This document shows, one piece after another, positions 1 to 28,814 of a DNA stretch of 32,000 nt (position 1 is its first letter; each line of letters begins with the position of its first letter). Location: the NCBI GenBank assembly GCA_026625185.1, contig CP113000.1, forward strand, positions 495,622 through 527,621, in the 5' to 3' direction. The position numbers and the translations under genes are program-made. The notes beneath the pieces are model-generated. The model was not told where the DNA came from, did no database searches, and saw nothing but the letters and a program-made list of their open reading frames with translations. The stretch is from Thermodesulfobacteriota bacterium (GTDB lineage Bacteria; Desulfobacterota; WTBG01; JAGOGO01).

Positions 1-587
1 CTAAGGTATTGGATCGAGCCAACGTGATTGAATTTCGCGTTGATACAGACCAAATGGAAAAATTTCTTAGTTCCCCGGGTGGGTTGTCTCTTGAATTACT
101 GAAAGGCAAAGGGTCAGCTTTTGGTAGATCTTTTGTAAGTGCAGCAAAGCTCGGAAATGTTGCTATCGAAAAAATCGCTCGTCATACAGAATCGGATTCC
201 ATGCGAATCCTCTCGGAAGACGAAACCCCTTTAGATGTTGAAGAACCTGTTTCCATAAAACTCAGGAAAGACCTTTCAGAGGTATTCAACGTCCTGGCTA
301 AGGTCGGCGCAGAATTTGGTTATCGCACGGTATTCGAGATGAGTCGATTTATCTATTATTACACTCTGATATACGGCAAGGAAGCCAGGTACCTAGATGC
401 TTTTGATGTACAGCTTATGCAAAAACTTTTGCCGAAGTTAAATGGATCAATTCGTAAATTGGGGCCTGTGCTTGAAAGTCTCCAGGAAGTCTGCGCAAAG
501 CATGATCTTCGGATCAGCTTGGAAAAAATCCAGCGAATGAGTCGCAACCTTGACCAAAACGGATTTACGAGTTACGCCGAGGCCTAG
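1..587 (+). CDS. McrB-like AAA+ (AAA_5) NTPase, C-terminal fragment; 5' end outside window
   Basis: The frame is open back to base 3 (KVLDRANVIEF...), so the listed TTG start at 9 is an artefact of the window edge. 'LDRANVIEF' resembles the C-terminal AAA_5/McrB region. The stop (585-587) lies 2 nt before the GTG of a McrC-like partner. Confidence 0.5.
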   Translation, partial: KVLDRANVIEFRVDTDQMEKFLSSPGGLSLELLKGKGSAFGRSFVSAAKLGNVAIEKIARHTESDSMRILSEDETPLDVEEPVSIKLRKDLSEVFNVLAKVGAEFGYRTVFEMSRFIYYYTLIYGKEARYLDAFDVQLMQKLLPKLNGSIRKLGPVLESLQEVCAKHDLRISLEKIQRMSRNLDQNGFTSYAEA

Positions 588-589
588 TC

Positions 590-2950
590 GTGCCACTGCT
601 TGAACATACTGCTGAATTCCCAGGTTCTGGCCACCCACCGATAACAATCTCAATCTATCCTAAAGTCCCAGCCGCCGGTGGACAGGATAGCCTTATAGTA
701 ATAGACCGGTCCCTAAAATATGTTGCGGGCGAAGAAGCCGACATTCAGCTTTTAGAGTCCTGCGAATACGAATTTGAGTTAAGTTCTCCTGGCTATTTAG
801 TGACAACATCGTATGAGTCTGACCGTATTATCATTCCTAGCCGAATAAAACGAGGTAAGCTCTCTGGCACACTTCGTCCCGGGCTATTTGTTGGTTGCCT
901 TGACCTGCTTCTTCTAGATAACCAAAAGAATGTCATATCTAGTTTGCCGGTTGAAATCAGATCAGTGAAACTGTCTTACCGTAATGATTTTCGCAACATG
1001 TTGGATTTCATCATGGAAAAAAGCCTTGGGCTTTTACTTCAAATACGTTCTCCAGCCACAGGAATGCTCACACCAGACCCGGGCCGAACTGCAGAAACCA
1101 TTGCACAACGTTTCGCGTTTCTACGTTCATTAATAGGGTCCAGGGAGTTTCAGGACTCCATAACTCGGATAGCAGTGCTACCCCACTCCCACCTGGAGTG
1201 CCGCGAAATAAAGGTGCCTGTTTCGCGATCATTTAGAGGGACTAAGCGGACCGCAAAGGAACTTGCGAGAGGCTCTCAAAGATTGCAACTTCCTAAAGAG
1301 CATCCCCTCACTGAAATTCTTGACACAGCACCCGTATCTATTGTTATTCATCGCAAGAAAACAACAATAGATACTCCTGAAAACCGCTTCGTCAAATTCG
1401 CCCTTAGGTCATTCCTGACCTTTCTAAACCGCATGAAAAATAGGCTGGAACAGATAGGTGAAAAAACTACGTCTGCTTTATATCATGATGTGGAAGCCCT
1501 TGAGGAAAATCTTGAAGCGATCCTCTACCGCCCTTTCTTCAAGGAAATATCCGATCCGTCAATACTCTCTCTAGGTAGTCCAGTTCTGCAGCAAAAAGGA
1601 GGCTACAGGGAGCTACTTCGGGCTTGGCTGTATTTTGATCTTGCAGCCCGACTCAGTTGGTCTGGAGGGGAAGACGCTTTTAAGGCTGGTCGCAGGGACA
1701 TAGCGATGTTATATGAATATTGGGTTTTCTTCAAACTACTTGATATTATGGGTCAAACATTTGACCTCGAAACTCCTCCCGCGCAAGAACTGGTTACCGA
1801 GACGCCAGATGGTTTCGAATTGAGGTTAAAGGCAGGCGAGTATACCGTCATCAATGCCATTTGTGAGAGATTCGGAAGAAGATTAAATGTTCGTTTTTGT
1901 TACAACCGCACGTTCTCGCGTCATGGGTCTGATGGAATGACCAATTATCCGAAAGCAGGCTCATGGAGTGAAAGAATGAGACCTGACTACACCTTAACAT
2001 TATGGCCAGAACCGTTTACTGAGCTTCAGGCCGAGAATCAGGAACTAATCGTTCATATTCATTTTGATGCCAAGTACAGGGTAGATAATCTTGCGGATTT
2101 GTTTGGCGAAAGCGACAGTGAGCTTGTTGCAAAAATTGACGAACAAATGACTTTGGAAAAGAAAGCTCAAAGGGAGGGAACCTACAAGAGGGCTGACCTA
2201 CTGAAGATGCATGCATACCGTGATGCAATTCGACGGACGGCTGGAGCCTATGTAATATATCCGGGATATCACAAAAGAGTGTGGAGGGGATTCCATGAAA
2301 TCCTTCCTGGACTTGGTGCCTTTCCGTTGCGCCCCGTGGCAAAAGGAGATGACGGAAGCCATGAATTGGAAGAGTTTATCAATCAGGTTGTCGAGCACAT
2401 ATGCGATCGGGCGACCCGACGCGAGCAGGAGAGCTATCATCGCTGGAAAATTAATGAAAATAGTTCGCCCTATCCTGTAAAAGGATGGATGCCAGAATAT
2501 ATTCAGACCCCAGAAGAAAGGCATTCTCCCCCACAAGACACATACGTGTTAATCGGTTTTTACAAGGATGCCCGTCATCTTGATTGGATAAGAATATCAG
2601 GACATTATGAACTCGGCATAGGAGGTTTAGAAGGTCTTGTATCGCTCAACCCAAATATGGCTGGGGCTAGGTATCTCTTATTGCGCTCAGAAGACATGAA
2701 ATGCCGAAATGGGCTGATGTTAATAAATTCAAACGGTCCCCAAATATTTTCAAAGCAGGAACTTATAAACATCGGATATCCTCATGAACCGCAGTCTAAT
2801 TTCTACTTTGTTTTCAGTGTCAACGATGCACCAGCTTTTGGTATTTATTCCTGGGATTTAAATTTGCTGGGTGATAAGATTCCGGACCTTTCAAATGCCA
2901 ATCTCACCATAGCCCTGGATACGTTGCTTAGCATAGCAGCTTCCAGGTGA
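590..2950 (+). CDS. McrC-like / DUF2357-type PD-(D/E)xK nuclease subunit with extra C-terminal domain
   Basis: 786 aa, tightly coupled to the upstream ATPase. Nuclease core 'RPDYTLTLW ... IVHIHFDAKYR' (D ... D-A-K) is followed by 'LLKMHAYRDAI', as in McrC-family partners of McrB-like ATPases. A further ~230 aa (YVLIGFYKDARHLDWI ... YLLLRS ...) has no function I recognise. Confidence 0.7.
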   Translation: MPLLEHTAEFPGSGHPPITISIYPKVPAAGGQDSLIVIDRSLKYVAGEEADIQLLESCEYEFELSSPGYLVTTSYESDRIIIPSRIKRGKLSGTLRPGLFVGCLDLLLLDNQKNVISSLPVEIRSVKLSYRNDFRNMLDFIMEKSLGLLLQIRSPATGMLTPDPGRTAETIAQRFAFLRSLIGSREFQDSITRIAVLPHSHLECREIKVPVSRSFRGTKRTAKELARGSQRLQLPKEHPLTEILDTAPVSIVIHRKKTTIDTPENRFVKFALRSFLTFLNRMKNRLEQIGEKTTSALYHDVEALEENLEAILYRPFFKEISDPSILSLGSPVLQQKGGYRELLRAWLYFDLAARLSWSGGEDAFKAGRRDIAMLYEYWVFFKLLDIMGQTFDLETPPAQELVTETPDGFELRLKAGEYTVINAICERFGRRLNVRFCYNRTFSRHGSDGMTNYPKAGSWSERMRPDYTLTLWPEPFTELQAENQELIVHIHFDAKYRVDNLADLFGESDSELVAKIDEQMTLEKKAQREGTYKRADLLKMHAYRDAIRRTAGAYVIYPGYHKRVWRGFHEILPGLGAFPLRPVAKGDDGSHELEEFINQVVEHICDRATRREQESYHRWKINENSSPYPVKGWMPEYIQTPEERHSPPQDTYVLIGFYKDARHLDWIRISGHYELGIGGLEGLVSLNPNMAGARYLLLRSEDMKCRNGLMLINSNGPQIFSKQELINIGYPHEPQSNFYFVFSVNDAPAFGIYSWDLNLLGDKIPDLSNANLTIALDTLLSIAASR

Positions 2951-3009: not shown

Positions 3010-3240
3010 ATGGCAAAACGGTCTGAAGGGATAAGACGACTTGTAATGGCGAGTTCAGTGTTAGCTGTCATGTGTTGGATTGTATTTGCAGCAATAGACA
3101 GTCATTTTTTTTATAAATTCACACCAATTCTTTGGTTGGTTGTCGCAGTTGGAGCGGTCATCGCATACTTTATTCCAAAATTAATATGCATCATTATTTA
3201 TTGGATTATGGAGGGTTTTAGAAAAGATAGAGGCAAATGA
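3010..3240 (+). CDS. small two-TM membrane protein, hypothetical
   Basis: 76 aa. SD-like gaggag sits 5 nt upstream of the ATG. Two hydrophobic helices (VMASSVLAVMCWIVFAAI; ILWLVVAVGAVIAYFIPKLICIIIYWI). No attC-like site separates it from the McrBC-like pair. Confidence 0.5.
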   Translation: MAKRSEGIRRLVMASSVLAVMCWIVFAAIDSHFFYKFTPILWLVVAVGAVIAYFIPKLICIIIYWIMEGFRKDRGK

Positions 3241-3295
3241 ACTCGTACTGCCCTTGAAGCGAAGAGGAAAAGGCAGCCTGTTCGAAGAAGGGGAT

Positions 3296-3359
3296 GTCCA
3301 TAAAATCATAAAATTCTTAACAACTGGTCTTATACGGACCAATATAAACATTGTTAGCT
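3296..3359 (+). repeat. attC-like site, family-1 copy A
   Basis: TTAACAA (3317-3323) is complementary to TTGTTAG (3351-3357). Inner hairpin tggtc-ttatac-gacca. Core GTTAGCT at 3353-3359. Conserved left extension gtccataaaatcataaaatt. The EVE-nuclease gene starts 26 nt later. Confidence 0.55.
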
Positions 3360-3384
3360 ATCCTGATTTTTTGTAGGAGGCAAT

Positions 3385-4398
3385 ATGAATACAAACCGTA
3401 AATCACCCTTCTTACTTAATGGGGTGGTGGCAAATTGGGTCATAGGGAAGACGAAGGGAATCTGGGGGCTCCCGCTAAAGGGACTGACATGGGACTGTGC
3501 GATAGCCCACCTACAAGAACTTGGATTCATCGCAGGTTCCGAAGTCTTGGCCATTTCAGGCCCCAAGGCTCATTTTAGGGCTGTCATCGGGAGCGCCCGT
3601 GGTGTTTATTTTGACACGAGTCCACTATGGCCATTCGGTCGGGGTAGAGAAATCTATCCTGTCAGGATTGAACTGACCAATATCCAGGATATAAATCAGG
3701 ATTGGTTCAACGGGCCCAAAGGTGACTTATGGCGCGTACCATTACAGGACGTATATTTTTCAAAGAGAAGTCTCTATGTCCTCCCTCCTCAGAGTTTTAA
3801 ATACCCTCATGTCAACCAAACCACCGTTTTTGGCACTGCACCCCACAGTTCGGGCGTCCCTCCTACATCTGTTTCGGACTTCATTTCCCTTGAAGATGGC
3901 ACTGCACAGGCATTTTCCCAATTCGGCTTTAAGATTGAACAATTGGGCCACAAACGGCCTTTGGAACGCGTTCCCGATGGCATTGGTATGTTACAACGAT
4001 CCCTTGCCAATTACGCAAAGACCTTGAACGCTAGTCCCTATTTTGTTGTCTGGGACTGTAAATATGACTGTGGCCCCAACGGCCTGAAAGCAGCAGACGA
4101 ACGAGCCATCAAAGAGTACATTGAAACCTACGCTCCAACAAGAAAGGCTGAGGCTGACGCTGGCGTGTTTTGGTTTCTGATTGTCGCCCGCGATAAAGCA
4201 GTTGCAGATAAGGTCTACTCCGGAGTTTCTCAATGGACATGGGTCGGTGAATGTCACCGGCTTGGGCTACGGGGTCTTCGAGTTATCTCTTTATCCACTT
4301 TATTGGGCCTAGTCAAGACCCGCCAATCAGTGGTTGACACAGATGATTTCTTGTTAAGTCTGCTGCCGCGCGAATTTGCCAAACCCTATCTTGGGTAG
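3385..4398 (+). CDS. EVE (PUA-like) domain fused to PD-(D/E)xK restriction-endonuclease-like domain
   Basis: SD aggagg at 3375-3380. The N-terminal ~110 aa fit the archaeal-type EVE pattern (NWVIGKTKGIWGLP ... GSEVLAISGP..FRAVIGSARGVYFD..PLWP ... YPVRIEL). The C-terminal half has 'VPDGIG ... FVVWDCKYD' (PD ... D-x-K). Confidence 0.6.
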   Translation: MNTNRKSPFLLNGVVANWVIGKTKGIWGLPLKGLTWDCAIAHLQELGFIAGSEVLAISGPKAHFRAVIGSARGVYFDTSPLWPFGRGREIYPVRIELTNIQDINQDWFNGPKGDLWRVPLQDVYFSKRSLYVLPPQSFKYPHVNQTTVFGTAPHSSGVPPTSVSDFISLEDGTAQAFSQFGFKIEQLGHKRPLERVPDGIGMLQRSLANYAKTLNASPYFVVWDCKYDCGPNGLKAADERAIKEYIETYAPTRKAEADAGVFWFLIVARDKAVADKVYSGVSQWTWVGECHRLGLRGLRVISLSTLLGLVKTRQSVVDTDDFLLSLLPREFAKPYLG

Positions 4399-4404
4399 GG
4401 CAAT

Positions 4405-4469
4405 AGCTAACGCTGCGGTTGCACAAGGACCGTTCGTGACCACGGGGTTTGTGAGCCGTTGCGTTAGGA
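4405..4469 (+). repeat. integron attC site
   Basis: AGCTAAC (4405-4411) ... GTTAGGA (4463-4469). CTAACGC pairs with GCGTTAG (7 bp). An inner stem CGGTT/CACAA vs TTGTG/AGCCG has one bulged G. Length 65 bp. It starts 7 nt after the stop of the upstream gene, and the next gene starts 25 nt after it. Confidence 0.7.
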
Positions 4470-4493
4470 ACTTTATTATAATGGAGGTATTTA

Positions 4494-5411
4494 ATGGCCA
4501 ATCTTTTTTGGAAGACCCCCAAAGGTGTCTCAGCATTGTTAGCTACTCCCTTTAAGTCTGAAGAAGAATTTGAAAAAATAATCTTCGAGTCATCTGAAGT
4601 CCTAGAAGATATTTTTCTTCTGAAACGTCAGGTTAGAGGAGGTGCAAAGCCAGGTATTCCTGATATTCTCGGTCTAGACAGTGATGGTAATATCTGCATA
4701 ATTGAGTTGAAGAATACAACAGTTGATGCTTCAATAATTCCACAAGTACTACAATATGCCTTCTGGGCGGAACGAAACCCAGATTCAATCAAAAGTCTTT
4801 GGCTGGAAAAAGAAGAAAGACCAGATGATCTTGAAATAAGCTGGGATAACCTCCAAGTTAGGATTATTATTATTGCCCCTTCCATTCTTCGGTCAACCCT
4901 TGGTCTTGTCAATAAGATCAACTACACCGTGGATCTCATTGAACTGAAAAGATGGGTTGAGGGTGATAGCCAGTTTATGCTGGTGAATAAACTTGAAGAA
5001 GTTGAAAAAGTGTCAAAAGCAAAACCAGTAAGTGGCCTTCAGCACTATGATGAGATGTTCTACAAAGGACACTATAACAGCAAGAGCGCAGAACACTTTA
5101 TAAGGTATATCAGGGAGGTGGAGAAACTTGTCCATAGCGAAAAGTGGCCACTCGAGACCAAATTTAATAAATCCTACTGCGGGTTCAAAGCAGGTTTTTT
5201 CAATGCCTTTGGCATTAAATGGATTGGGTCAAAGACCTTTGCATTCTTTTTTAAATTGCCAAACAAAGAAGCAGAACGAATTAAAAAGGGCATGACCAAG
5301 TACGAGACTCCATGGAAGGAGGCAGTTTATTACATTGATCCAACAAAGACTAAAGTTGTCGACTTCAAGCCATTGTTCGAGGCCGCATTCAAGAGACTTA
5401 CAGGAGATTAA
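4494..5411 (+). CDS. NucS/DUF91-like PD-(D/E)xK nuclease with unrelated C-terminal domain
   Basis: SD ggagg at 4483-4487. 'GIPDILGLDSDGNICIIELKNTTVDASIIPQVLQYAFW' matches D ... E-x-K ... Q..Y of NucS/RecB-like nuclease domains. The C-terminal ~130 aa (KFNKSYCGFKAGFFNAFGIKWIGSKTFAFFFKL) resemble DUF4268/DUF5655-type modules (tentative). Confidence 0.65.
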   Translation: MANLFWKTPKGVSALLATPFKSEEEFEKIIFESSEVLEDIFLLKRQVRGGAKPGIPDILGLDSDGNICIIELKNTTVDASIIPQVLQYAFWAERNPDSIKSLWLEKEERPDDLEISWDNLQVRIIIIAPSILRSTLGLVNKINYTVDLIELKRWVEGDSQFMLVNKLEEVEKVSKAKPVSGLQHYDEMFYKGHYNSKSAEHFIRYIREVEKLVHSEKWPLETKFNKSYCGFKAGFFNAFGIKWIGSKTFAFFFKLPNKEAERIKKGMTKYETPWKEAVYYIDPTKTKVVDFKPLFEAAFKRLTGD

Positions 5412-5412
5412 T

Positions 5413-5560
5413 GCCTGTAATAAATGGCTCTATCGGACGGCATACTGCCGCCGCTGATTTCAATCATTATAGCTGAAAAATGAATTATTCACATTTTCAA
5501 CATCGACATAATTTCGCATTATGGTGTGCTGCCCGTGCTGTGCAACGCACGGTGAGCTTG
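5413..5560 (+). repeat. possible long, degenerate attC site
   Basis: Canonical core GTTAGGC at 5554-5560, 61 nt before the next start codon. The left end has only a degenerate inverse core (GCCTGTAAT, 5413-5421) and arm complementarity is weak. There is an internal hairpin ccgtgc/gcacgg (5533-5551). Confidence 0.25.
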
Positions 5561-5621
5561 GTCGTTAGGCCCCTAATATGTTTTTTTGTGGAAACATTTT
5601 ATTAATAAAAGGAGGCTTTAC

Positions 5622-6716
5622 ATGCCGCTAGAAATCGGTATCTGGCGAATTGATAGTGGCCTGAAACAAGTGGACTTTGGGCCGCTGGATATTGAGTCGC
5701 GCTTGGAAGATATCCTAGACAACAATATTGGCATTGCTTCACCGAACTGGCATGTTATAGGGCGACAGGTACGCACTGATCATGGTTTTTTTATCGACTT
5801 GCTCGCAATCGACCGAGACGCTAACCTCGTCGTGATTGAGCTCAAACGTGATAGGACCCACCGCGATATAGTAGCCCAAGTGCTCGACTATGGTTCGTGG
5901 GTTCGGGATCTCAAGGATGACCGGATAGCTCAGATCTTCGATGAATACCAGAAACGATGGCATCCGGACAGAATTATGATTTCCATTGATGAGTCGTTCA
6001 AAAAGAAGTTCGGTATCGCAATGCCAGATGAAATGAATTCCTCTCATGAACTTGTGGTGGTAGCATCGAGTTTGGATCCGAGCACGGAGCGTGTAGTTCG
6101 CTACTTAGCTGACGAATATGATGTTCGTATCAATGCAGTTTTCTTCCGAGTGTTCCGTGATGGCGACCGCGAGTACTTGAGCAGGGCATGGTTCCGTGAT
6201 CCTGCTGAAGTGAGTGCAGGCATGGACGAAGAGACCGTCGCCGGTGAGTGGAACGAGGAGTACTATGTATCCTTCGGTTACGACACGGAAGTTGTGCGCG
6301 ATGGACTTAATAGGGGCTATCTCGTCGCTGGAGGCGGTTCGTGGTACTCGAAGACGCTTGCGATGCTCGAGCTCGGCGCACGCATTTGGGTGAATGTGCC
6401 CGGGTTAGGCTATGTCGGAGTTGGTAAGGTCACGCAAGAGATGCAGCCGGTCGACGAGTTTACCGTGACCGATCAGGCCGGCAAACAGGTGTCGATCATT
6501 GAAGTATCACCGGCAGCAGCATCGCTTAGGCGAGCGAAGGATGATCCTGAAAAGGCAGATTACTTGGTACGGGTCGAATGGCTGAAAACTGTCGACCCAA
6601 ACCAGGCCATCCACGAGAAAGGATTCTTCGGGAACCAGAACTCCGTTGCCCGGCCTCGTTCGCCAAAATGGAACCATACAGTAGAGCGTCTCAAAATACG
6701 ATTTGGGGTCGAGTAG
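5622..6716 (+). CDS. NucS/DUF91-like PD-(D/E)xK nuclease with C-terminal beta-rich (reader-like?) domain
   Basis: I prefer the ATG at 5622 (SD aaaggagg at 5608-5615) over the listed 5586 start. 'FIDLLAIDRDANLVVIELKRDRTHRDIVAQVLDYGSWV' is the same nuclease signature as in 4494-5411. The C-terminal 170 aa (GGGSWYSKTL..GARIWVNVPGLGYVGVGKV ... YLVRVEWLKTV) are of unknown function. The gene is visibly GC-richer than its neighbours. Confidence 0.65.
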   Translation: MPLEIGIWRIDSGLKQVDFGPLDIESRLEDILDNNIGIASPNWHVIGRQVRTDHGFFIDLLAIDRDANLVVIELKRDRTHRDIVAQVLDYGSWVRDLKDDRIAQIFDEYQKRWHPDRIMISIDESFKKKFGIAMPDEMNSSHELVVVASSLDPSTERVVRYLADEYDVRINAVFFRVFRDGDREYLSRAWFRDPAEVSAGMDEETVAGEWNEEYYVSFGYDTEVVRDGLNRGYLVAGGGSWYSKTLAMLELGARIWVNVPGLGYVGVGKVTQEMQPVDEFTVTDQAGKQVSIIEVSPAAASLRRAKDDPEKADYLVRVEWLKTVDPNQAIHEKGFFGNQNSVARPRSPKWNHTVERLKIRFGVE

Positions 6717-6737
6717 AGGAGGGGGTGAGAGATAGAA

Positions 6738-6791
6738 GTCCATAATCTTAACAACTGAGCCTTACGCGGATCAATATAAACATTGTTAATA
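6738..6791 (+). repeat. attC-like site, family-1 copy B
   Basis: gtccataat-CTTAACAAC (6747-6755), hairpin tgagcc-ttacgc-ggatca, then atataaacattGTTAATA (core 6785-6791). It matches copy A with a deletion in the left extension. Confidence 0.55.
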
Positions 6792-6804
6792 TCTTAAAAA
6801 CGAC

Positions 6805-7062
6805 ATGGTAAAAATCACACGATTTCCTGGTTGTAAAGAAAGACGGCGGCGCCTGAATCTGGCCGAAGGTCGCGTATCGTGCCAAGTGTCCTCTCGCTGG
6901 TTGCAGTTCCCTGAGAATGCCACCGCCCTTTCTGACGGCACATATCTGGTTGTTAACGTCATGACGCTCACGCCAGAGGAGAAAGAAAGAAAAATATGCG
7001 AGCTGGTACTTCTCAAGGAAGATCTGCTTGCCATACTTGAGAAATTGCCTACAAAAGAATGA
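6805..7062 (+). CDS. hypothetical small protein (weak call)
   Basis: 85-aa ORF. Only the C-terminal third (MTLTPEEKERKICELVLLKEDLLAILEKLPTKE) looks protein-like, so the true start may be the internal ATG. No recognisable domain. Confidence 0.3.
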   Translation: MVKITRFPGCKERRRRLNLAEGRVSCQVSSRWLQFPENATALSDGTYLVVNVMTLTPEEKERKICELVLLKEDLLAILEKLPTKE

Positions 7063-7090
7063 ACATATCTTGCATTCGCAATTTTGAATT

Positions 7091-7462
7091 ATGGACATCA
7101 CGGTAAAACATCTTGAGGAAGCATGTTTTGATCTCGCGCGCTCAACAAAAGGGGAGATGCGCCCCGTTGATATATCCGAGATAACAGACCTATCGAAAAA
7201 ATTTCTTGCAGTCGCGCTTCAGGAAGAAGAGATCGGCAGAGAACTCGGCGTAACAATCCCTTTACTAACAAGGGCGGTACATTATTTGCGGGAAGCACAT
7301 GCAATACCGCCAATGGGGGGAGACATAGTCTGGTTTAAGAATATGCTTACGGCTGTCCTTGAGATTGCCTGTCCCAATGCTGGCCTTGACGGTCAAGGAA
7401 AGGCCTTCTTGCGCGATCTCCTCAAGGGGATTGGCTCTTTTTTGGATGACAATGAAACCTAA
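7091..7462 (+). CDS. hypothetical protein
   Basis: 123-aa ORF with an unbiased helical-looking sequence, in the same cassette as 6805-7062. The stop codon lies inside an ACCTAAC inverse-core-like heptamer (7457-7463). Confidence 0.5.
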   Translation: MDITVKHLEEACFDLARSTKGEMRPVDISEITDLSKKFLAVALQEEEIGRELGVTIPLLTRAVHYLREAHAIPPMGGDIVWFKNMLTAVLEIACPNAGLDGQGKAFLRDLLKGIGSFLDDNET

Positions 7463-7471
7463 CAAGGGAAG

Positions 7472-7567
7472 GTCCCTAAAATTATAAAATTCTTAACAAC
7501 GGGGTTTTATGCCGACTAAAATCAATTATATGGGTGTTATATAGAAACCATATAAGCATTGTTAGGT
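7472..7567 (+). repeat. attC-like site, family-1 copy C
   Basis: gtccctaaaattataaaattCTTAACAAC (7492-7500), a ~50-nt variable hairpin (ggggttt ... aaacc), then atataagcattGTTAGGT. The core at 7561-7567 fits GTTRRRY exactly. Confidence 0.55.
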
Positions 7568-7585
7568 AGCTGAGAGAGCAGAGCA

Positions 7586-8068
7586 ATGGTCCTTTTTCTC
7601 AAAAACCTCTTATTCACGTTGGTCGTTCCGGGCACAGTCGGAGTCTTTCTCCCCCTAAAGATAGCCGGGGGTCATTCTTCCGCGTCAGGATTGGCCTTCG
7701 CGACCGCCTGCGCTTTTTTCGCTATAGCCACATCGATTTATTTGTGGTGCGTGTGGAATTTCGCTGTGTTTGGGCGTGGCACACCAGCGCCAATTGATCC
7801 TCCCAAGAAACTCATCATGCGCGGGCTCTATCGGTACACCCGAAATCCGATGTATTTGGGAGTCCTCACAGCGATCTTGGGTTGGGCAATCCTTTTTAGA
7901 GCTACGACCTTGGTCTTCTATGCCATGGTGGTGGGAGCTTGCTGCCATCTGTTCATTGTCTTCTATGAGGAGCCCCATCTTCAACGTACATTCGGGAAGG
8001 AGTACGACGATTACCGCGCTCAGGTGAACCGGTGGCTTCCAAAACCCTGGCACAAGTTGGGAGCTTAA
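7586..8068 (+). CDS. isoprenylcysteine carboxyl methyltransferase (ICMT/PEMT)-family membrane methyltransferase
   Basis: 160 aa with 4-5 TM helices. 'GLYRYTRNPMYLGVL' is the family signature, and it is followed by 'EEPHLQRTFGKEYDDYRAQV'. Confidence 0.7.
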   Translation: MVLFLKNLLFTLVVPGTVGVFLPLKIAGGHSSASGLAFATACAFFAIATSIYLWCVWNFAVFGRGTPAPIDPPKKLIMRGLYRYTRNPMYLGVLTAILGWAILFRATTLVFYAMVVGACCHLFIVFYEEPHLQRTFGKEYDDYRAQVNRWLPKPWHKLGA

Positions 8069-8139
8069 AAATTATAAGGCCTCCCGTTGTCACGAGAAAA
8101 AACTTTGGTTGGAGTATACACTCAAAAAAATTGTTAGCA
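8062..8139 (+). repeat. attC-like site, family-1 variant (type 2 left arm)
   Basis: The right arm aaaaaaattGTTAGCA (core 8133-8139) matches family 1. The left arm cttaaaaattataaggcctccc is shared with 10725-10738. ataaggcctcc is complementary to ggagggcctcat at 8146-8157. Confidence 0.4.
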
Positions 8140-8188
8140 CGTTGTGGAGGGCCTCATATGGTGTGTAAATTCGATTTTTCGGCATCCC
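8124..8188 (+). repeat. 65-bp repeat, copy 1 (shared upstream element of two protease cassettes)
   Basis: Aligns with 9017-9082. There is a 22-nt perfect block aaattcgatttttcggcatccc (8167-8188 = 9061-9082) plus the shared blocks ggagggc and tcatat. Confidence 0.7.
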
Positions 8189-8268
8189 CCAGGGGGGTTA
8201 AATTCTATAATTCCATTAATTCTATTCAGCCGCCCGTTAAATTTGTGGCTGATATTTTAGGAGGGTAA
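8158..8268 (+). CDS. possible 36-aa upstream ORF (MVCKFDFSASPRGVKFYNSINSIQPPVKFVADILGG)
   Basis: The ATG is preceded by ggaggg with a 6-nt spacer. Its stop (8266-8268) lies inside the SD of the downstream protease gene. 'KFDFSAS' is also encoded in the second repeat copy, but without a start codon. Confidence 0.3.
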   Translation: MVCKFDFSASPRGVKFYNSINSIQPPVKFVADILGG

Positions 8269-8273
8269 CAACC

Positions 8274-8894
8274 ATGACTCTTATCATTGCAGCTATTTGT
8301 AGGGATGGGGTACTAATCAGATCCGATAAAAGAAGAAAAGTCATGAACTCATCAGGGGAGATTATATACTATGACGATATGGACAAAGTTTTCGTCTCTG
8401 CAGATAAAAGAACTATTATCTACAATCACGGAATCAACGTAATCAAAGGCAAGTCGTGGTATGACCTTGCTATCAGAGCAGAAAATGCAATAAGGAAAGA
8501 AAGTGCTGATGATATCGATACAGCACTTAACAAAGTCGAAAACACCATATCGGCTGAAGTGCTTGCCGAAATATCAAATAATCAACTCGACGATTTCTGT
8601 GCATTTGTAGTGATTCTCAAGACGAGCGGAAACCAGTGGCAGGCAAAGGATATTTCTTGGAAACGTGGAGAAGGCGTCAAAAAGACTCCCCTCGGAAGGA
8701 TCATTTTATCAGGCTCAGGTGAAAAATACATCAAACGGGACAAAAAATGGTGGAATAACAATTACTGGGCATCCCTTAGTATGGACGAAGCCAAAGGGCA
8801 GATTGAAAGGCTTTACTCGATGGCTATCAAAAATCAAAACAACGCTCAAGGAGACGAATTCTCATCGTCATTTAATGATGTGATGGTAACTTGA
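8274..8894 (+). CDS. stand-alone proteasome-beta/HslV-like Ntn (Thr) hydrolase
   Basis: Strong SD aggaggg. 'M-TLIIAAICRDGVLIRSDKR' puts Thr at position 1 after Met removal and Asp at 17. 'DKVF' supplies the Lys (about position 37), and 'ILSGSGEKY' matches the GSG motif of proteasome beta subunits. No alpha-subunit or ATPase partner is adjacent. Confidence 0.6.
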   Translation: MTLIIAAICRDGVLIRSDKRRKVMNSSGEIIYYDDMDKVFVSADKRTIIYNHGINVIKGKSWYDLAIRAENAIRKESADDIDTALNKVENTISAEVLAEISNNQLDDFCAFVVILKTSGNQWQAKDISWKRGEGVKKTPLGRIILSGSGEKYIKRDKKWWNNNYWASLSMDEAKGQIERLYSMAIKNQNNAQGDEFSSSFNDVMVT

Positions 8895-9016
8895 CCCAAC
8901 AAAATGATTGGGTTGACCTTGCCCTACTCGGTAATTGTCTTTTAGTGGTTGTGCAAGACGAAAGAAATAACCCCCTTGAAACAGAAGTTCGAGGATTACA
9001 CATTTAATACAAACCC

Positions 9017-9082
9017 AAAAAAAATTTTGGCGCATTGAGGAGGGCTCATATAGGCCCGGCAAATTCGATTTTTCGGCATCCC
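9017..9082 (+). repeat. 65-bp repeat, copy 2
   Basis: See 8124-8188. The ATG of the small ORF is ATA here and the reading frame is shifted. Confidence 0.7.
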
Positions 9083-9102
9083 GCCCTCTTTTTCGGCAAC
9101 AA

Positions 9103-9159
9103 CTAACAACCTGAAAGTCAGTCCAAGCGAAAAAAATAAAATTTTGATTGTTTTTTAGC
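9103..9159 (+). repeat. degenerate attC-like site (family-1-like)
   Basis: CTAACAAC (9103-9110), hairpin ctga-aag-tcag, then ttgattGTTttttAGC (9148-9159), which resembles cattGTTAGC with a T-run insertion. Confidence 0.3.
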
Positions 9160-9304
9160 CTTTTACGATTTAATATTTAAAAACATTTGGCCCTCGGATT
9201 ATTTGCGGAAACCTTATGCAAGGCTAATGAAATAAAACCATGGCGCTTCACTACTTGGGTTTTAGATCAGTATAAAAATTGCTGGGGGGTGTTGGAGACA
9301 ATAT

Positions 9305-10369
9305 ATGTCGAAACACAGGCGGTTGAAAAATTTTATACCTGCTCCAAAGCAGGTTGTATCTACCGTAGTGCCTAAGATTAACATGGTTGAGTCATTATAT
9401 GATTCGATCATTGAAGGCAATGAGTATGGAAGCATTGTTTCCGTAATTCCAAAGCCAGAGATTGATCTCATTGATGAAATTATTAAAGGCCTTAAAGCTG
9501 TACAATTCATTAGGTTACGACCTTGTTTGGCTTATATTGGGAATGTGATCCGATCTGATGACTATTCAGGCATTGTAACAGCGGATGATTTGCCATTTGC
9601 CGAAATGATAAAAGGAGTTCCCAAAGATACCGAAAGCGTAGATGTCTTTCTTGCAACGATGGGTGGCTCCGCTCATCAGGTAAGCAGATTTGTAAATTTC
9701 TTACGGGCACGATTTAAAGAAGTAGACTTCCTTGTCCCATCATTCTGTATGAGTGCTGGCACTCTATTTGCTCTTTCGGGTGATCATATTTGGATGAATC
9801 CTACTGCTTGCCTTGGTCCTATCGATCCACAAGTGCCCACAAAAGATGGAAGATTCGTCCCAGCACAGGCTTTGCTTCTTCTCATTAGCCAATTACAAGA
9901 ACAAGGCGATGAAGCTTTAAAGAACAAGGGGGCAGTGCCATGGACAGCTGTACGAATTATCGACAGCCTCGACAAGAAAGAATTGGGTGACGCAATTACT
10001 GCCTCGACCTATTCCATTACAATGGCAACCCAATTCCTTATTCAGTACAAATTCAAAAATTGGCAAACTAGGGAAACAAGCCAAATACCCGTCACGGATC
10101 AATATAGGCAAACTCGAGCTTTTGAAATCGCGTCAGCTCTAGCTGCACATGATCGATGGAAAAACCATGGACATTCCATCTCAAGAGATGTATTATGGAA
10201 TGAGATAAAGCTCCAGATTGACCACCCATCACCGGACTTGGAGAAGGCGATATCTAAGCTGTGGGCTCTATTTTTTTGGGTTTTTGACAAAACTCCAATT
10301 ATTAAACTAATAGTCTCGGAAAATTATCGTTTTGCTCGGCATTCCATCATTTTGGAGAAGAAACTATGA
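9305..10369 (+). CDS. SDH-family (serine dehydrogenase proteinase) ClpP/crotonase-fold serine protease
   Basis: 354 aa, SD ggaga. 'VDVFLATMGGSAHQVSRFVNFLRARFKEVDFLVPSFCMSAGTLFALSGDHIWMNPTACLGPIDPQV' matches the SDH/SppA-like core, including the nucleophile Ser in 'MSAGT'. Confidence 0.7.
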   Translation: MSKHRRLKNFIPAPKQVVSTVVPKINMVESLYDSIIEGNEYGSIVSVIPKPEIDLIDEIIKGLKAVQFIRLRPCLAYIGNVIRSDDYSGIVTADDLPFAEMIKGVPKDTESVDVFLATMGGSAHQVSRFVNFLRARFKEVDFLVPSFCMSAGTLFALSGDHIWMNPTACLGPIDPQVPTKDGRFVPAQALLLLISQLQEQGDEALKNKGAVPWTAVRIIDSLDKKELGDAITASTYSITMATQFLIQYKFKNWQTRETSQIPVTDQYRQTRAFEIASALAAHDRWKNHGHSISRDVLWNEIKLQIDHPSPDLEKAISKLWALFFWVFDKTPIIKLIVSENYRFARHSIILEKKL

Positions 10370-10605
10370 TTGAAAAAAATCTCCTAATGCAGCTCGGTTG
10401 GTCGGAAGACCTTATAGATGAAGTAACTAGGGTCTCCAACGAACTTTCGCGAAGCCAACCCTCGCTACCTCAAATCGGACAGACTCCATCGGCTCTTTAC
10501 TCCGACACTTGTGATTCACTTTTCTATAATAGCGACCAATCAAACACAACCGATCAGCTGATTTCGGCCCATAGAAGCCAGATCAAACCATCTCACGGTG
10601 CATAA
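10366..10605 (+). CDS. hypothetical 79-aa protein, translationally coupled to the SDH protease
   Basis: The ATGA overlap with the upstream stop (10366-10369) indicates coupling. The sequence is Ser/Gln/Thr-rich and probably disordered after an N-terminal helix. No recognisable domain. Confidence 0.45.
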   Translation: MIEKNLLMQLGWSEDLIDEVTRVSNELSRSQPSLPQIGQTPSALYSDTCDSLFYNSDQSNTTDQLISAHRSQIKPSHGA

Positions 10606-10724
10606 TGGGCGATCAGCTGGGAAGATAATTTGTTTTCTCATAACGCGTGACCGCGATTCATACCAGCAGGATTTCTATAGACACTGCGTAGAATTTCACA
10701 TACTATCAAAGAGAAGCCAAACAC

Positions 10725-10782
10725 TTATAAGGCCTCCCATTTTCAGGAGAAAAGAATTCTCCTAAAAGCAAAAGGAGGGAGG
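10725..10782 (+). repeat. type-2 repeat / attC-like remnant
   Basis: ttataaggcctccc(a)tt(t)tca(g)gagaaaa matches 8072-8100. Perfect inner hairpin aggagaa-aagaa-ttctcct. cctccc is complementary to gggagg (10776-10782). Confidence 0.35.
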
Positions 10783-10858
10783 AAACTTGCCAAATCGGAA
10801 TGGGCGTTTTTAGCTATTTCTGGCTAATTTTATATATTTTTGCAGGACTAAAGGCCTT

Positions 10859-11131
10859 TTATCTTTTTTCTCCTCTTTCGGTTGCCCCTTCAGTAGACTT
10901 TTCAGTCGCTGCTTCCAGCCTCTCTATTGCTTTCTCTACTTCTGCCCGTTTTTCTTCAGGAATAAGCCCCCGCTTCGAGCTTGCTTACCAAAAGTAGTTT
11001 CATCAAGCGGTTATCTATATGAACCTCTTGGGCAACTTCACTCTCTACTTTATTTATCTTCGGTGCCCCAGCACTATCCAATATGCTTTTAGCATTCGTT
11101 AACTGAATAGCTTCAATTTTCGAATCCCCTC
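10859..11131 (-). pseudogene. frameshifted C-terminal gene fragment of unknown family
   Basis: The minus strand reads ...GDSKIEAIQLTNAKSILDSAGAPKINKVESEVAQEVHIDNRLMKLLLVSKLEAG. It then continues in the +1 frame as LIPEEKRAEVEKAIERLEAATEKSTEGATERGEKR*. No start codon is present. Confidence 0.3.
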
Positions 11132-11405
11132 ATAAATTTCCAACCTGTGTAAAATTGGTCTAGTCAAACTCAAACGAAAAGTGTGCCTGGGGTCTTAGGG
11201 GGGTCTACACCCTTGTAGAAACTAGTCCCTTGAAGAAGAGTAGTGCCGGTGAGAATAGAGCCCTTTGTTGAGGTAATGGTATGAGTACTGGCCTGACTAC
11301 TTTTCAGTTTGTTACACAAAAAAAGTGGGGACAATGTGGGGACAAAATTGGTTGGGAAACAAAAAAGGACTTGGCTGTATCTAGCTAAGTCCTTAATTTT
11401 GTTAA

Positions 11406-11479
11406 CGCGCCCAGGGTGACTCGAACACCCAACCTACGGATTCGTAGTCCGGTACTCTATCCAATTGAGCTATGGGCGC
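11406..11479 (-). tRNA. tRNA-Arg (anticodon ACG)
   Basis: The reverse complement folds as a cloverleaf: acceptor GCGCCCA/TGGGCGC, D-loop AATTGGATA, anticodon loop CT-ACG-AA, T-arm GGGTG-TTCGAGT-CACCC, discriminator G. CCA is not encoded. There is one C/T mismatch at the top of the anticodon stem. Confidence 0.93.
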
Positions 11480-11545
11480 AAAAAAATTAATTTATAATAA
11501 CATTTTTTACCCTTTTCGTCAATATCTTATTCAAAGATATTTTCC

Positions 11546-20946: not shown

Positions 20947-22776
20947 ATGTGCGGCATCATCGGCTATATGGGAAAACGTAATGTTCAGGAAGTTCTCCTG
21001 AGCGGTCTCCGGAGGCTTGAGTACCGGGGCTATGACTCAGCCGGGATAGCTGTTTTTCATCAGGGCACGATCGCAATCAGTCGCACGGAAGGGAAAATCG
21101 AAAATCTGGAAAAGCAGGTAAAAGACAGTTTATTTGACGGCGACGTTGGGATCGGACATACGCGCTGGGCTACCCACGGCCGGCCCTCAGAAGAAAACGC
21201 GCATCCTCATAGAGATGGTTCGGTGACCATCGTGCACAATGGGATCATCGAAAATTACCTTTCCCTGAAGGAGATGCTGAATAAGAAGGGACACACCTTT
21301 CAGTCCGAAACCGACACCGAGGTTATCGCCCATCTCATCAACCAATACTTCACGGAGGGAAAAGAGTTTGAAGACGCTGTCAGGCAGGCGCTTCAGAAAT
21401 TGAAAGGCACGTATGGCCTCGGGATCATCTGTGAAAAATTTCCTCATATGCTTATTGCGGCCCGAAGGGAAAGTCCGATGATCGTCGGCTTAGGGGAAGA
21501 CGAGTACTTTATTGCCTCCGATATTCCGGCTATCCTCAATTATACCCGCACGATGATCTTTTTAGAGGATGGAGAGATGGCGGTGCTCTCAGAGCATGGA
21601 CCGAGGATTTTCAACCTCAAGGGGAAGCACATTCAGCGGGAACCCAAAATAATTTCGTGGGATCCGGTTATGGCGGAGAAGCAAGGATATAAGCATTTTA
21701 TGCTCAAGGAGATATTCGAACAGCCCCAGGCAATTGCCGATACCATCAGGGGAAGAGTGGCGGAATCTACCAATGAAATTTTCTTTGAACAGATTAATCT
21801 TCCGCCGCAAAACGTTAAGCGGATTGAACGGATTACAATCGTGGCCTGTGGAACATCGTATCATGCCGGGCTGGTAGGCAAGTTTATTATCGAAGGCCTT
21901 ACTCGCATACCGGTGGAGGTTGATCACGGATCGGAATTTCGCTATCGCAATCCATTAGTGGATGATACAACCCTCATGATTCTTATTTCCCAATCCGGTG
22001 AGACAGCAGACACCTTAGCGGCTTTAAAAGAGGGAAAGCGAAAAGGAACGAAGCTGCTGGCGATTTGTAATGTGGTGGATTCCAGTCTGGTGCGGGGGGC
22101 TGATGGCGTTATGTACACCCGGGCCGGCCCGGAGATCGGCGTGGCTTCGACCAAGGCATTTACTACTCAAATCATTACCCTGTATCTTTTTACGCTTTAC
22201 CTGGGACGGGCACGAGGCTCTTTTTCTGCCAAGGTTTTTCGGGAATTGATTGAAGACCTGCTCAAAGTTTCCCATCAGGCAGAGCACATTTTGGCCCAAG
22301 AGAAAAAGATAAAAGAGGTTGCCCGGAGGTATATGGGATATAACAACTTTCTTTATCTTGGTCGGGGAATAAATTATCCGATTGCCTTGGAAGGCGCTTT
22401 AAAACTTAAAGAAATATCTTACATTCATGCTGAAGGTTATCCTGCGGGAGAGATGAAGCATGGACCAATCGCCCTGATTGACGAACACACCCCAAGCGTG
22501 GTTTTACTGACCAAAAACGGAACCTATGAAAAGATGCTGGGAAACATCGAGGAAATCAAAGCCCGAGAAGGAAAAGTAATAGCAGTTTCTTCTTATAAAG
22601 ATAGGAGTTTGAAAAAAAAGGTTGATGAATTTCTCCTCCTTCCTTCCAATAACCCTTATCTCACAGCGGTTCTGCTTACGATACCTTTGCAGCTTTTAGC
22701 CTATCATGTGGCAGTATTACGAGGCACGGATGTTGATCAGCCCAGAAACCTGGCAAAAAGCGTAACGGTTGAGTGA
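20947..22776 (+). CDS. glmS: glutamine--fructose-6-phosphate aminotransferase
   Basis: N-terminal nucleophile 'MCGIIGY', two SIS domains ('ISQSGETADTL'), C-terminal 'PRNLAKSVTVE'. 609 aa. Confidence 0.97.
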   Translation: MCGIIGYMGKRNVQEVLLSGLRRLEYRGYDSAGIAVFHQGTIAISRTEGKIENLEKQVKDSLFDGDVGIGHTRWATHGRPSEENAHPHRDGSVTIVHNGIIENYLSLKEMLNKKGHTFQSETDTEVIAHLINQYFTEGKEFEDAVRQALQKLKGTYGLGIICEKFPHMLIAARRESPMIVGLGEDEYFIASDIPAILNYTRTMIFLEDGEMAVLSEHGPRIFNLKGKHIQREPKIISWDPVMAEKQGYKHFMLKEIFEQPQAIADTIRGRVAESTNEIFFEQINLPPQNVKRIERITIVACGTSYHAGLVGKFIIEGLTRIPVEVDHGSEFRYRNPLVDDTTLMILISQSGETADTLAALKEGKRKGTKLLAICNVVDSSLVRGADGVMYTRAGPEIGVASTKAFTTQIITLYLFTLYLGRARGSFSAKVFRELIEDLLKVSHQAEHILAQEKKIKEVARRYMGYNNFLYLGRGINYPIALEGALKLKEISYIHAEGYPAGEMKHGPIALIDEHTPSVVLLTKNGTYEKMLGNIEEIKAREGKVIAVSSYKDRSLKKKVDEFLLLPSNNPYLTAVLLTIPLQLLAYHVAVLRGTDVDQPRNLAKSVTVE

Positions 22777-23852
22777 CCATGAATTTTCAAGCGCCAGGTA
22801 ACGCCACGGTCATTGGAAGTTTCCCTCACGCGGAGGCGGACGACGCCCTCCGCATTATCATGGAGTGTGTCCCCACAATTCCGGCCTGGCCTCAGCTCCC
22901 TTTTTATCCGGAAGAACGGATGGTACGACAATATAATGAAGGAATGCCGGGATTACGCATGAAGGAGGATAACGTCTTCTTTGACACCTCCCAACCGGAG
23001 TTCGAAACTGAGCTTTTGGAATTCTACGAAGAATATTTAAAAGTTCTCGATATGGAGCAGATGCCGCTCGATCACAAACTGGGAATTTCCCCTGCTTATA
23101 GCCGAGGATTCCATGTCTTGTATAAGACGTTAGCGGGAGTTGGGTACAAGCCTTTAGCGGTTAAAGGACAAATCGCCGGTCCGTTAACGTTAGCGACCAC
23201 GCTTACTGATCAAGATAGAAGGAGCGCCTATTATGACTCCCGGCTGAGAGACGTAGTGATCAAGACCCTGGCGATAAAGGCCAAGTGGCAGATTCATCAG
23301 CTTCGGGCCATAGGAGCCCCGGTTATTATTTTTATTGATGAGCCCTCTCTTGCTGCCTATGGGTCGAGCGCTTTTTTAGGTATTTCTGAAGACGATGTAA
23401 AAAATGACCTGCAGGAGGTTATTGAACAGATTCACAGCGAAGGGGCGCTCGCGGGAATTCACTGCTGTGAAAACACTGACTGGAGCTTACTCATAAAAGC
23501 TAATCCCGACATCCTTAATTTTGACGCCTACGGTTTTTTTGATAAATTAATTTTATACGCTCAAGACGTAAAGGATTTTATCCAACGAGATAAGATCCTC
23601 GCCTGGGGACTTATACCCACCGGCAATCCTGAGGATATTAAAAAAGAAACTGCCGGTTCACTCATTGAGAGGTGGAAGGGCTATCTAGCGGCATTAGAAC
23701 GGCTTAACATCGAGCGTAAGCGCATTATCTCCCAATCTCTGATTACCCCAAGCTGTGGGACGGGAACGTTAACCCCGGATTTGTCGGAGCGGGTTATGCA
23801 TCTTCTTCGGGAAGTATCGGAAATTTTACAACGAGATTATGTGGAGTATTAA
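22773..23852 (+). CDS. cobalamin-independent methionine synthase / URO-D-like (CIMS superfamily) protein
   Basis: 359 aa, overlaps the glmS stop. 'GSFPH', 'VKGQIAGPLTLA', 'IFIDEPSL' and 'IHCCENTDW' resemble the MetE C-terminal-like fold. The assignment is by-eye only. Confidence 0.45.
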   Translation: MTMNFQAPGNATVIGSFPHAEADDALRIIMECVPTIPAWPQLPFYPEERMVRQYNEGMPGLRMKEDNVFFDTSQPEFETELLEFYEEYLKVLDMEQMPLDHKLGISPAYSRGFHVLYKTLAGVGYKPLAVKGQIAGPLTLATTLTDQDRRSAYYDSRLRDVVIKTLAIKAKWQIHQLRAIGAPVIIFIDEPSLAAYGSSAFLGISEDDVKNDLQEVIEQIHSEGALAGIHCCENTDWSLLIKANPDILNFDAYGFFDKLILYAQDVKDFIQRDKILAWGLIPTGNPEDIKKETAGSLIERWKGYLAALERLNIERKRIISQSLITPSCGTGTLTPDLSERVMHLLREVSEILQRDYVEY

Positions 23853-25775: not shown

Positions 25776-25834
25776 TTAAAATATTTTTACTTTAATTAAT
25801 GAGGATTGAGGGCAATGCTTTTCACAAAATAAAA

Positions 25835-25876
25835 AAGGCCGTATTGCCATAAATAAAATGGCAAGGGCCTTTTTCT
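25835..25876 (+). terminator. rho-independent terminator
   Basis: aaggccgtattgccat / atggcaagggcctt stem (ggcc and ttgccat/atggcaa paired, small internal bulge) followed by tttttc. Confidence 0.65.
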
Positions 25877-25902
25877 GCTTTGGGGAGTAGCACAATCGGT
25901 TC

Positions 25903-28699: not shown

Positions 28700-28737
28700 A
28701 AGCAATAAAGACAGACATTGAGAACACCGAACAAACT

Positions 28738-28788: not shown

Positions 28789-28814
28789 GGAGCTTTATAT
28801 TAAAAAAAGGGAAT

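Follow-up and report, generated by a model that had tools for sequence, protein, structure and literature searches.

Two arrays of short genes that are probably integron cassettes, with no integron integrase gene nearby, flank a core block in the genome of an uncultured, sulfate-reducer-type bacterium of the Thermodesulfobacteriota ('deltaproteobacterial') (NCBI GenBank assembly GCA_026625185.1). The stretch that we analyzed, hereafter the window, comprises 32,000 nucleotides of contig CP113000.1 (positions 495,622 to 527,621 of the forward strand), and all coordinates are those of the window unless a related locus (L001 and so on) is named. Its core block, at 12.2-23.9 kb, contains recA, the gene of a PilT-like ATPase, recX, alaS, bamD, an amidohydrolase gene, glmU, glmS and the gene of a 359-aa protein. 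On both flanks of this block lie short, unrelated genes on the + strand: array 1 covers ~3.2-11.1 kb and ends 290 nt short of a tRNA-Arg gene, and array 2 covers ~25.9-30.1 kb, with glycosyltransferase genes beginning at its end. The interpretation that we favor, and consider likely, is that these are two attC-site clusters without integron-integrases (CALINs), in which each cassette is closed by either a canonical attC or an attC-like repeat of 75 nt and was captured by an integron integrase (IntI) encoded elsewhere, array 1 being part of the cargo of a tRNA island.

Four canonical or near-canonical attC sites without intI nearby

As a reference for attC anatomy we used 13 distinct class-1 attC sites from plasmid integrons, which were fetched via an IntI1 sequence 100% identical to database copies. 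In these sites R'' (RYYYAAC) is followed, after a spacer of 5 nt, by an L'' of 8 nt, one of them extra; a middle part that varies comes next, then an L' of 7 nt, a spacer of 5 or 6 nt, and R' (GTTRRRY). Two sites of array 2, both on the + strand, fit this layout exactly, namely 26980-27037 (ACCTAAC-5-GAT[T]CACC...GGTGATC-6-GTTGGGC; folding z-score -4.2, with none of 200 shuffles as stable) and 27926-27992 (GCCCAAC-5-GTT[T]CACC...GGTGAAC-5-GTTCGGT; z -2.8). A near fit is found in array 1 at 4405-4469 (+ strand), with R'' AGCTAAC, a 5-nt spacer, L'' GGTTGCAC including an extra base, L' GTGAGCC, another 5-nt spacer and R' GTTAGGA. Its bottom strand folds with a free energy of -14 kcal/mol (z -2.9), it reached a score of 12 in a rule-based attC scan, and its 3' arm, GTGAGCCGTTGC|GTTA, was seen again in an attC of locus L071. 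The near-canonical site at 28739-28788 (+ strand; CATTAAC...GTTATGC, the 5' arm having an extra C; z -1.1) completes the set, and a member of the 75-nt repeat family comes 18 nt after it. Extra-base asymmetry is the property of attC that sets cassette orientation. All four sites carry the extra base in the 5' arm of the + strand, that is, in the 3' (R''-L'') arm of the bottom strand, and the orientation agrees with the direction of the genes. Counted as for a CALIN, array 2 holds 26980-27037, 27926-27992 and 28739-28788, and array 1 holds 4405-4469 together with a decayed attC at 5415-5472, which amounts to one strong and one weak canonical site in array 1 unless the 75-nt repeats are counted as well.

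We also searched with a covariance model, R1, trained solely on the 13 class-1 sites; it recovers all class-1 sites, several of them from outside the training set. Its four best matches in the window were 27926-27992 (the top match, 14 bits, E 0.25), 5415-5472 (second, 13.7 bits, E 0.3), 28726-28800 and 26980-27037. Each of them lies in an array gap on the + strand, and such gaps make up ~4% of the R1 search space. In loci that had been found via the 75-nt repeat, R1 gave significant matches (29.9 bits, E 3e-4 in L057; 28.2 bits, E 8e-4 in L008; 24.3 bits, E 7e-3 in L030), all on the same strand as the repeat. The arrays therefore combine the repeat and canonical attC sites in a common orientation. 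The rule-based scanner yielded ~7 matches per shuffled window below score 12 and was used for the top sites only. Rfam, searched at its gathering and at E-value thresholds, returned only the tRNA and no attC match.

Neither intI nor attI was found in the window, in 9.4 kb upstream of it (L001) or in 8.3 kb downstream (L002); for IntI this negative extends to 280 kb of related loci. A tblastn search with IntI1 against the window and 376 kb of loci hit only the generic C-termini of two tyrosine recombinases. These two scored 60 and 46 bits against the NCBIfam integron-integrase model, far below its cut-off of 265, and look XerC/D-like. A survey of 130 non-redundant proteins of 150 aa or more, encoded next to the arrays in 66 loci, showed no recurrent recombinase or transposase.

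Cassette turnover between related genomes

The closest named relatives by AlaS are metagenome-assembled genomes (MAGs) labelled Deltaproteobacteria or Thermodesulfobacteriota (76% and 68% identity). In relatives at 75% AlaS identity the core synteny is present and both arrays are absent. The methyltransferase cassette at 7586-8068 occurs in L026, L039 and L065 beside other neighbors; in L026 and L039 it is the last cassette and is followed directly by the equivalent of window 11117-11448, such that window 8101-11117 is absent. Within the right end of array 2 (30050-30090, + strand; CCTAAC...ATTAGG) begins the homology with L024 and L040, which match the right flank from 30075 onward with 93% identity but hold other cassettes. 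A canonical junction that could be mapped by comparing L071 with L068 falls at ..GC|GTTAAAA.

Array 1 appears to be cargo of a tRNA-Arg island

Upstream of the window (L001) lie genes for an integrase of 412 aa, a RovC-like protein, a primpol-helicase, Vsr, two Dcm methylases and an AAA_23 protein. Together with a DUF2357/PDDEXK nuclease at 590-2950 of the window they make up an island-type gene set, which covers L001 1-10000 and window 9-2950. The integrase, 12.7 kb upstream, is of the tyrosine type with SAM_3 and Phage_integrase domains and is not an IntI; the helicase is of the primpol/AAA_25 kind, and the closest match to the primase-helicase in a protein search was 63% identical. Altogether, the 12.7 kb upstream of the first site form an operon-like block of restriction-modification, primase and integrase genes that holds no cassettes and no IntI. 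At its other end array 1 is followed by a conserved segment (11117-11404), which comes after different last cassettes in L026/L039 and in L007, and then by the tRNA-Arg (ACG) gene at 11405-11480 on the minus strand. In L026 and L039 the array runs into the same end segment, then into only the 3' 46 nt of tRNA-Arg, without the remaining gene (L026 2105-2150 and the same stretch of L039; window 11405-11450), and then into unrelated DNA; such a lone 3' end is what an att repeat from tRNA integration would look like. In L007 the end segment stands beside tRNA-Asp. With this segment and a partial tRNA-Arg copy in L026/L039, and the same segment by tRNA-Asp in L007, array 1 looks like cargo of a tRNA-integrating island, and it appears to belong to a tRNA-Arg island of ~21 kb with its own non-integron tyrosine integrase. 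A direct repeat of tRNA-Arg was not found in the 9.4 kb upstream and the window, the far end of the island lying beyond the DNA examined.

A sequence-only reading of array 1 had proposed either a CALIN or the distal part of a large sedentary chromosomal integron (SCI). The CALIN part of this proposal is backed by the attC anatomy, the R1 matches, the polymorphism and the absence of IntI; that the window lacks intI or any other recombinase, as the same reading had stated, was confirmed by the tblastn and protein family searches. The distal part of an SCI, with intI further upstream, we regard as very improbable. The homogeneity of the 75-nt repeat does recall the attC families of SCIs, but array 1 is bounded on both sides, by the restriction-modification/primase/integrase island on the left and by the conserved 290-nt segment and tRNA-Arg on the right, and is thus not the tail of a large chromosomal integron. 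The lineage, moreover, has several short arrays on different contigs.

Restriction-modification cargo, an integrase of its own, a primase-helicase and the partial tRNA-Arg copy in L026/L039 would equally suit a generic tRNA-linked defence island, in which the palindromes were terminators or repeats of the repetitive extragenic palindrome (REP) or miniature inverted-repeat transposable element (MITE) type and their likeness to attC was superficial. Several of the sites listed in the sequence-only reading indeed fold no better than shuffles, and the count of terminator-like structures is not above chance. We nevertheless find this explanation improbable, since the asymmetric geometry of attC is exact at 26980-27037 and 27926-27992 and nearly so at 4405-4469, and since R1, which is independent of these loci, gives significant co-oriented matches in homologous arrays. 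Further points against it are that the repeats occur strictly in a single orientation with gene-sized spacing, that T-runs are absent after the sites, and that array 2, which lies between core genes, carries the same sites without any island features.

A 75-nt repeat at about half of the array junctions

About half of the junctions in the arrays consist of a lineage-specific 75-nt repeat with the consensus AAGGGGnCGTCCATAAAATTATAAAATTCTTAACAACGGnGTCTTATACGGATCAATATAAACATT|GTTAGnC, which departs from attC on two tests (below) and yet behaves as a cassette boundary. In array 1 there is a short-form copy at 3285-3359 (left module ...GTCCATAAAATCATAAAATTCTTAACAAC, then a hairpin element ending GTTAGCT; bottom-strand z -3.0), a copy with a shortened left module at 6738-6791 (z -1.3) and a long-form copy at 7461-7567 (z -1.1), the same long form preceding the same downstream gene in L065. 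Array 2 starts with a diverged long member of the family at 25900-26085 (TTTTAAC...GTTAAGT) and has a long-form copy at 28804-28922; all five are on the + strand. An exact 23-nt pattern of the repeat was found on five contigs of two GTDB MAG species, both named 'uncultured delta proteobacterium', and the repeat is also present on 61 JGI metagenome contigs. The metagenomes contain more than 90 copies, with an abundance in sediment and wetland-type samples, and a viral contig collection contained none.

Contigs with multiple copies (2-4) always have them in a single orientation, 400-2000 nt apart, and the 11.6-kb core block of the window has no copy, a distribution unlike that of REP or MITE repeats, which would occur scattered, in both orientations and without gene-sized units. 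Approximately half of the copies lie less than 40 nt downstream of the stop codon of an open reading frame (ORF), and genes begin 0-35 nt past the GTT. Comparison of L025 with L051 further identified a repeat-bounded cassette, c1, for which the limits of homology are near both GTT cores. Promoter- and terminator-like signals in the repeat numbered at or below the shuffle expectation, and only 7493-7522, in a long-form copy, is promoter-like. Drawn as an attC, the repeat has R'' TCTTAAC, L'' GT[C]TTATA, L' TATAAAC and R' GTTRRRY, and its extra C is on the arm where an attC would have it; R'' to R' span a core of only ~46 nt, and an invariant extension of ~30 nt precedes R''.

In the mechanism that we envisage, a cassette would be a promoterless + strand gene or gene pair closed by a canonical attC or by the 75-nt repeat (TCTTAAC...GTTRRRY). 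An IntI encoded elsewhere in the genome or in the community would capture and shuffle such cassettes, acting in trans via the folded bottom strand of attC and recombining it at G|TT. The 75-nt repeat, homogeneous as it is, may then be the lineage's own type of functional attC, analogous to the Vibrio cholerae repeats (VCRs), and its long invariant stretch could additionally permit homologous recombination.

Several observations weigh against this interpretation. The gene intI was unseen in the window, its flanks and the related loci of the lineage, and an IntI that acts in trans is an assumption. The R1 E-values in the window are marginal (0.25-1.6), R1 misses 4405-4469 on the + strand, and the rule-based scan produced two sites with scores of at least 13 versus 0.31 expected in shuffles, only a modest excess. 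The polymorphism of array 1 could in part reflect different islands at one tRNA and not cassette shuffling. As to the repeat itself, its spacers are 6 and 3 nt long as opposed to the canonical 5 and 5-6, and R1 found no match at 3285-3359, 6738-6791, 7461-7567 or 28804-28922 even at E values up to 10 with filters off. No support from covariation was obtained for four candidate helices among 53 distinct copies, the family being too conserved, with part of the invariance stemming from the search pattern itself. Lastly, an attC is expected to belong to its upstream cassette and to be exchanged at G|TT, and the repeat shows a different behavior: of 7 informative pairs with nothing but the downstream gene in common, 4-5 have a repeat interior that is 100% identical, compared with a background identity of 72%, which places the exchange point in the invariant left module and not at G|TT.

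This last pattern fits three processes, namely homologous recombination within the longest stretch of identity, cleavage of the top strand by IntI at TCTTAA|C, and the action of a different recombinase in the invariant AT-rich left module. Any of them could underlie an explanation in which the repeat is not an attC but the site of some other exchange that shuffles units of hairpin element, gene and left module, canonical attC sites forming a second, independent layer. Besides the breakpoints, this explanation draws on the separate occurrence of left module and hairpin element, on the GGGGAC/GGGGTC direct repeats that flank the left module, on G-T wobbles of the candidate helices that pair in the + strand only, and on the frequent presence of a canonical attC directly upstream of a copy, the two being separated by no ORF (28739-28788, then 28804; L030 1039-1109, then 1116). 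We think it unlikely, given that no candidate recombinase recurs near the arrays, that the repeat has a good terminal GTTRRRY box, which varies as expected for R', that cassette c1 has its homology limits where a canonical cassette would have them, that around half of the copies are the sole element between two ORFs, and that homologous recombination in the longest identical stretch gives the same breakpoints without a new enzyme. A more specific form of the same idea, that the 75-nt element is an undescribed junction module, with a ~40-nt AT-rich invariant left module (GTCCATAAAATTATAAAATTCTTAACAAC) as the exchange point and an attC-like hairpin moving together with the gene downstream, seems to us rather unlikely as well; the cassettes would then be shuffled by something other than bottom-strand IntI action at G|TT, either cleavage of the top strand or on the R'' side, or a different recombinase. 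That the interior travels with the downstream gene would be accounted for by an inverted reading of the repeat (R'' = GCCTAAC, R' = GTTAAGA), but this was rejected as a canonical attC because the extra bases fall on the wrong arm and because the canonical sites and the genes all point the other way.

Two side observations concern the repeat. An attC or attC-like hairpin followed by a repeat copy with no intervening ORF was encountered at 3238-3359 and 28739-28922 and in L025, L030, L062 and L066. In addition, of the otherwise identical contigs L043 (~895-915) and L057 (~770-780), one has 10 nt duplicated in tandem (CATTGTTGGG), precisely at the R' end of a long copy of the repeat.

Degenerate sites in array 1

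The eight palindromes that the sequence-only reading had listed as attC sites of array 1 proved to be of several kinds: a single canonical site, a decayed attC, three copies of the 75-nt repeat, two sites with degenerate sequence or wrong limits, and one that does not exceed chance. The canonical one, 4405-4469, has the AAC/GTT cores and the fold (z -2.9) claimed for it. Sites 3296-3359, 6738-6791 and 7472-7567 do have real TTAAC...GTTAG ends, but they belong to one repeat family that begins ~11-25 nt more to the left (3285, 6738, 7461), and fold weakly. In place of the single palindrome proposed at 5413-5560 there are two features on the + strand, the decayed attC at 5415-5472, in which AAT/ATT cores replace AAC/GTT (z -2.8), and a separate hairpin at 5520-5570 that ends GTGAGC-TTGGTC-GTTAGGC (GTTAGGC at 5564-5570); the latter was read from the sequence and is possibly, if uncertainly, the 3' half of another attC. 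Site 8062-8139 was wrongly delimited, as the true inverted repeat pairs 8074-8086 with 8136-8150. It forms part of a degenerate site of a second repeat type (8062-8161, + strand; GCTTAAA-AATTA-TAAGGCCTCC...GGAGGGCCTCA-TATGG; z -0.4), with TTAAA as its left core; R'' is intact (GCCTAAC) in L026. This second type (R''-ACTTA-TAAGGCCTCCC) also closes the array in L026 and L007, and its left half (CCAAAC-ACTTA-TAAGGCCTCCC) is present with a hairpin at 10715-10782 (+ strand); the site given as 10725-10782 is a plain hairpin (z -2.1) in which the right GTT core is absent. Site 9103-9159 was not substantiated (z -0.04, with 88 of 200 shuffles folding equally well). In bottom-strand folding, suggested in that reading as a check, the extra base is on the expected arm at the four canonical sites, and several listed sites fold no better than shuffles.

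The description of the layout fared better. Every gene between 3.3 and 10.8 kb had been assigned to the + strand, and this strand does hold every sizeable ORF between 3.0 and 10.6 kb. The difference in base composition between cassettes is real, with a GC content of 0.37-0.52 for cassette ORFs against 0.47 for the core (0.514 at 5622-6716 and 0.401 at 8274-8894), and genes do begin shortly after the GTT, at a distance of 20-33 nt and each with its own Shine-Dalgarno sequence, at 3385, 4494, 6805 and 7586. The scattered REP/MITE repeats that were named as a refutation did not materialize, as the repeats have a single orientation and gene-sized spacing and are absent from the core block.

Further attC-like structures were noted in array 1. 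A small hairpin of 46 nt at 3238-3283 (+ strand; GAAC-TCGTA-CTGCCCTT...AAGGCAG-CCT-GTTC), read from the sequence and carrying no model score, lies directly 3' of the stop codon of ORF 3010-3240, which encodes a 76-aa membrane protein, and directly 5' of a repeat-family copy. Two homologous segments of ~75 nt, 8110-8190 and 9010-9085, share an exact 22-nt repeat, AAATTCGATTTTTCGGCATCCC (at 8167 and 9061), the second copy having TTT for the GTT core; they resemble the 3' half of a single attC type with a common cassette leader after it.

Cassette genes and neighboring features

Array 1 carries, on the + strand, a 337-aa ORF with no family match (3385-4398), two ORFs of the NucS-like nuclease kind, a cassette of two ORFs (85 aa and 123 aa), neither of which matches a family (6805-7462), the PEMT/ICMT-type methyltransferase ORF (7586-8068) with its three other contexts in L026, L039 and L065, an AT-rich 206-aa ORF (GC 0.40) with no family match (8274-8894), and two overlapping ORFs for a ClpP-like SDH-type protease of 354 aa and a 79-aa product (9305-10605). 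The NucS-like ORF at 4494-5411, with a nuclease fold, is a full-length match to the PADLOC candidate defence gene PDC-S18 (E 1.8e-134), and the one at 5622-6716 is a full-length match to the PADLOC candidate PDC-S11 (E 1.5e-129). Array 2, also on the + strand, carries an HNH/DUF7225 ORF (26119-26970), a DUF4238 ORF (27063-27908), a trypsin-like ORF (28004-28699), a cation-efflux ORF (28919-29584) and a 137-aa ORF (29660-30073), and weak matches to defence families were obtained for the HNH, DUF4238 and trypsin-like cassettes. Several cassettes are thus candidate anti-phage genes on the basis of their predicted families, the PDC families of PADLOC being themselves candidates only.

A few features around the arrays are recorded here. 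Between the last recognizable site of array 1 and the island end segment there is a frameshifted ORF on the minus strand (10870-11125; ...KLLLVSKLEAG / LIPEEKRAEVEKAIERLEAA...). Upstream of array 2, at 25791-25885, lies a conserved segment of ~90 nt with a AAAAAGGCC...GGCCTTTTT hairpin, which is found upstream of arrays in unrelated contigs as well (L021 190-278; L041 6100-6196; L053 3043-3125; L044 793-1066), and a related GGCC hairpin opens a cassette common to L026, L036, L039 and L051. L026 and L039 are otherwise 99% identical and differ by a 150-nt indel (L026 ~3290-3440) with palindromic edges of the CCCCGCCGCTTGCGGCG type. Within the core block, the 359-aa protein (22773-23852) has no Pfam family, and its position after glmS is kept in all relatives examined (L002, L084-L086).

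Relation to known systems and implications

CALINs are an already described class, and the arrays are probably ordinary members of it, with the 75-nt junction repeat as the one unexplained feature. Half of all CALINs come from genomes that lack intI, and a proposed origin is their insertion at secondary sites (Cury et al., 2016; PMC4889954). The arrays described here resemble CALINs in having at least two attC sites on the same strand less than 4 kb apart, no intI nearby, a small size, mostly unknown cassettes and several clusters per genome (PMC4889954). The similarity of attC sites within CALINs is particularly low (PMC4889954). Unlike in CALINs, only part of the junctions here are canonical, the rest being a homogeneous repeat, and one of the arrays appears to sit on a tRNA-integrated island.

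In being a lineage-specific, highly similar family interspersed with heterologous attC sites, the 75-nt repeat is similar to the VCRs and to the attC families of SCIs (PMC12614218). Like SCI families it spans related species, here two GTDB MAG species and 61 metagenome contigs, but it differs from them in having no adjacent intI or attI, an R''-R' core of ~46 nt, 6/3 spacing and a ~30-nt 5' extension that holds exchange points. The nuclease-type, single-gene candidates PDC-S18 and PDC-S11 and the HNH, DUF4238 and protease genes, each one a cassette, parallel the defence-encoding integron cassettes described elsewhere (bioRxiv 10.1101/2024.07.02.601719; PMC12614218), although a defence role is here predicted only, from PADLOC candidate families. 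Finally, a tyrosine integrase, a primpol/AAA_25 helicase, restriction-modification cargo, a terminal tRNA and a partial tRNA 3' copy in a relative are shared with tRNA-integrated islands that have a P4-type integrase and a primase-helicase, whereas part of the cargo here is organized as attC-bounded cassettes.

The two arrays add integrase-less, partly island-borne cassette clusters with candidate anti-phage nucleases for a poorly sampled anaerobic lineage. Turnover of cassettes at the same loci fits the view of cassettes as stores of defence genes that leak into secondary sites. If the 75-nt repeat is indeed a functional attC, then the structural range of attC would be wider than hitherto described, and models trained on class-1 sites, such as R1, would miss this part of it; if it is not, a second shuffling mechanism would be at work inside cassette arrays.

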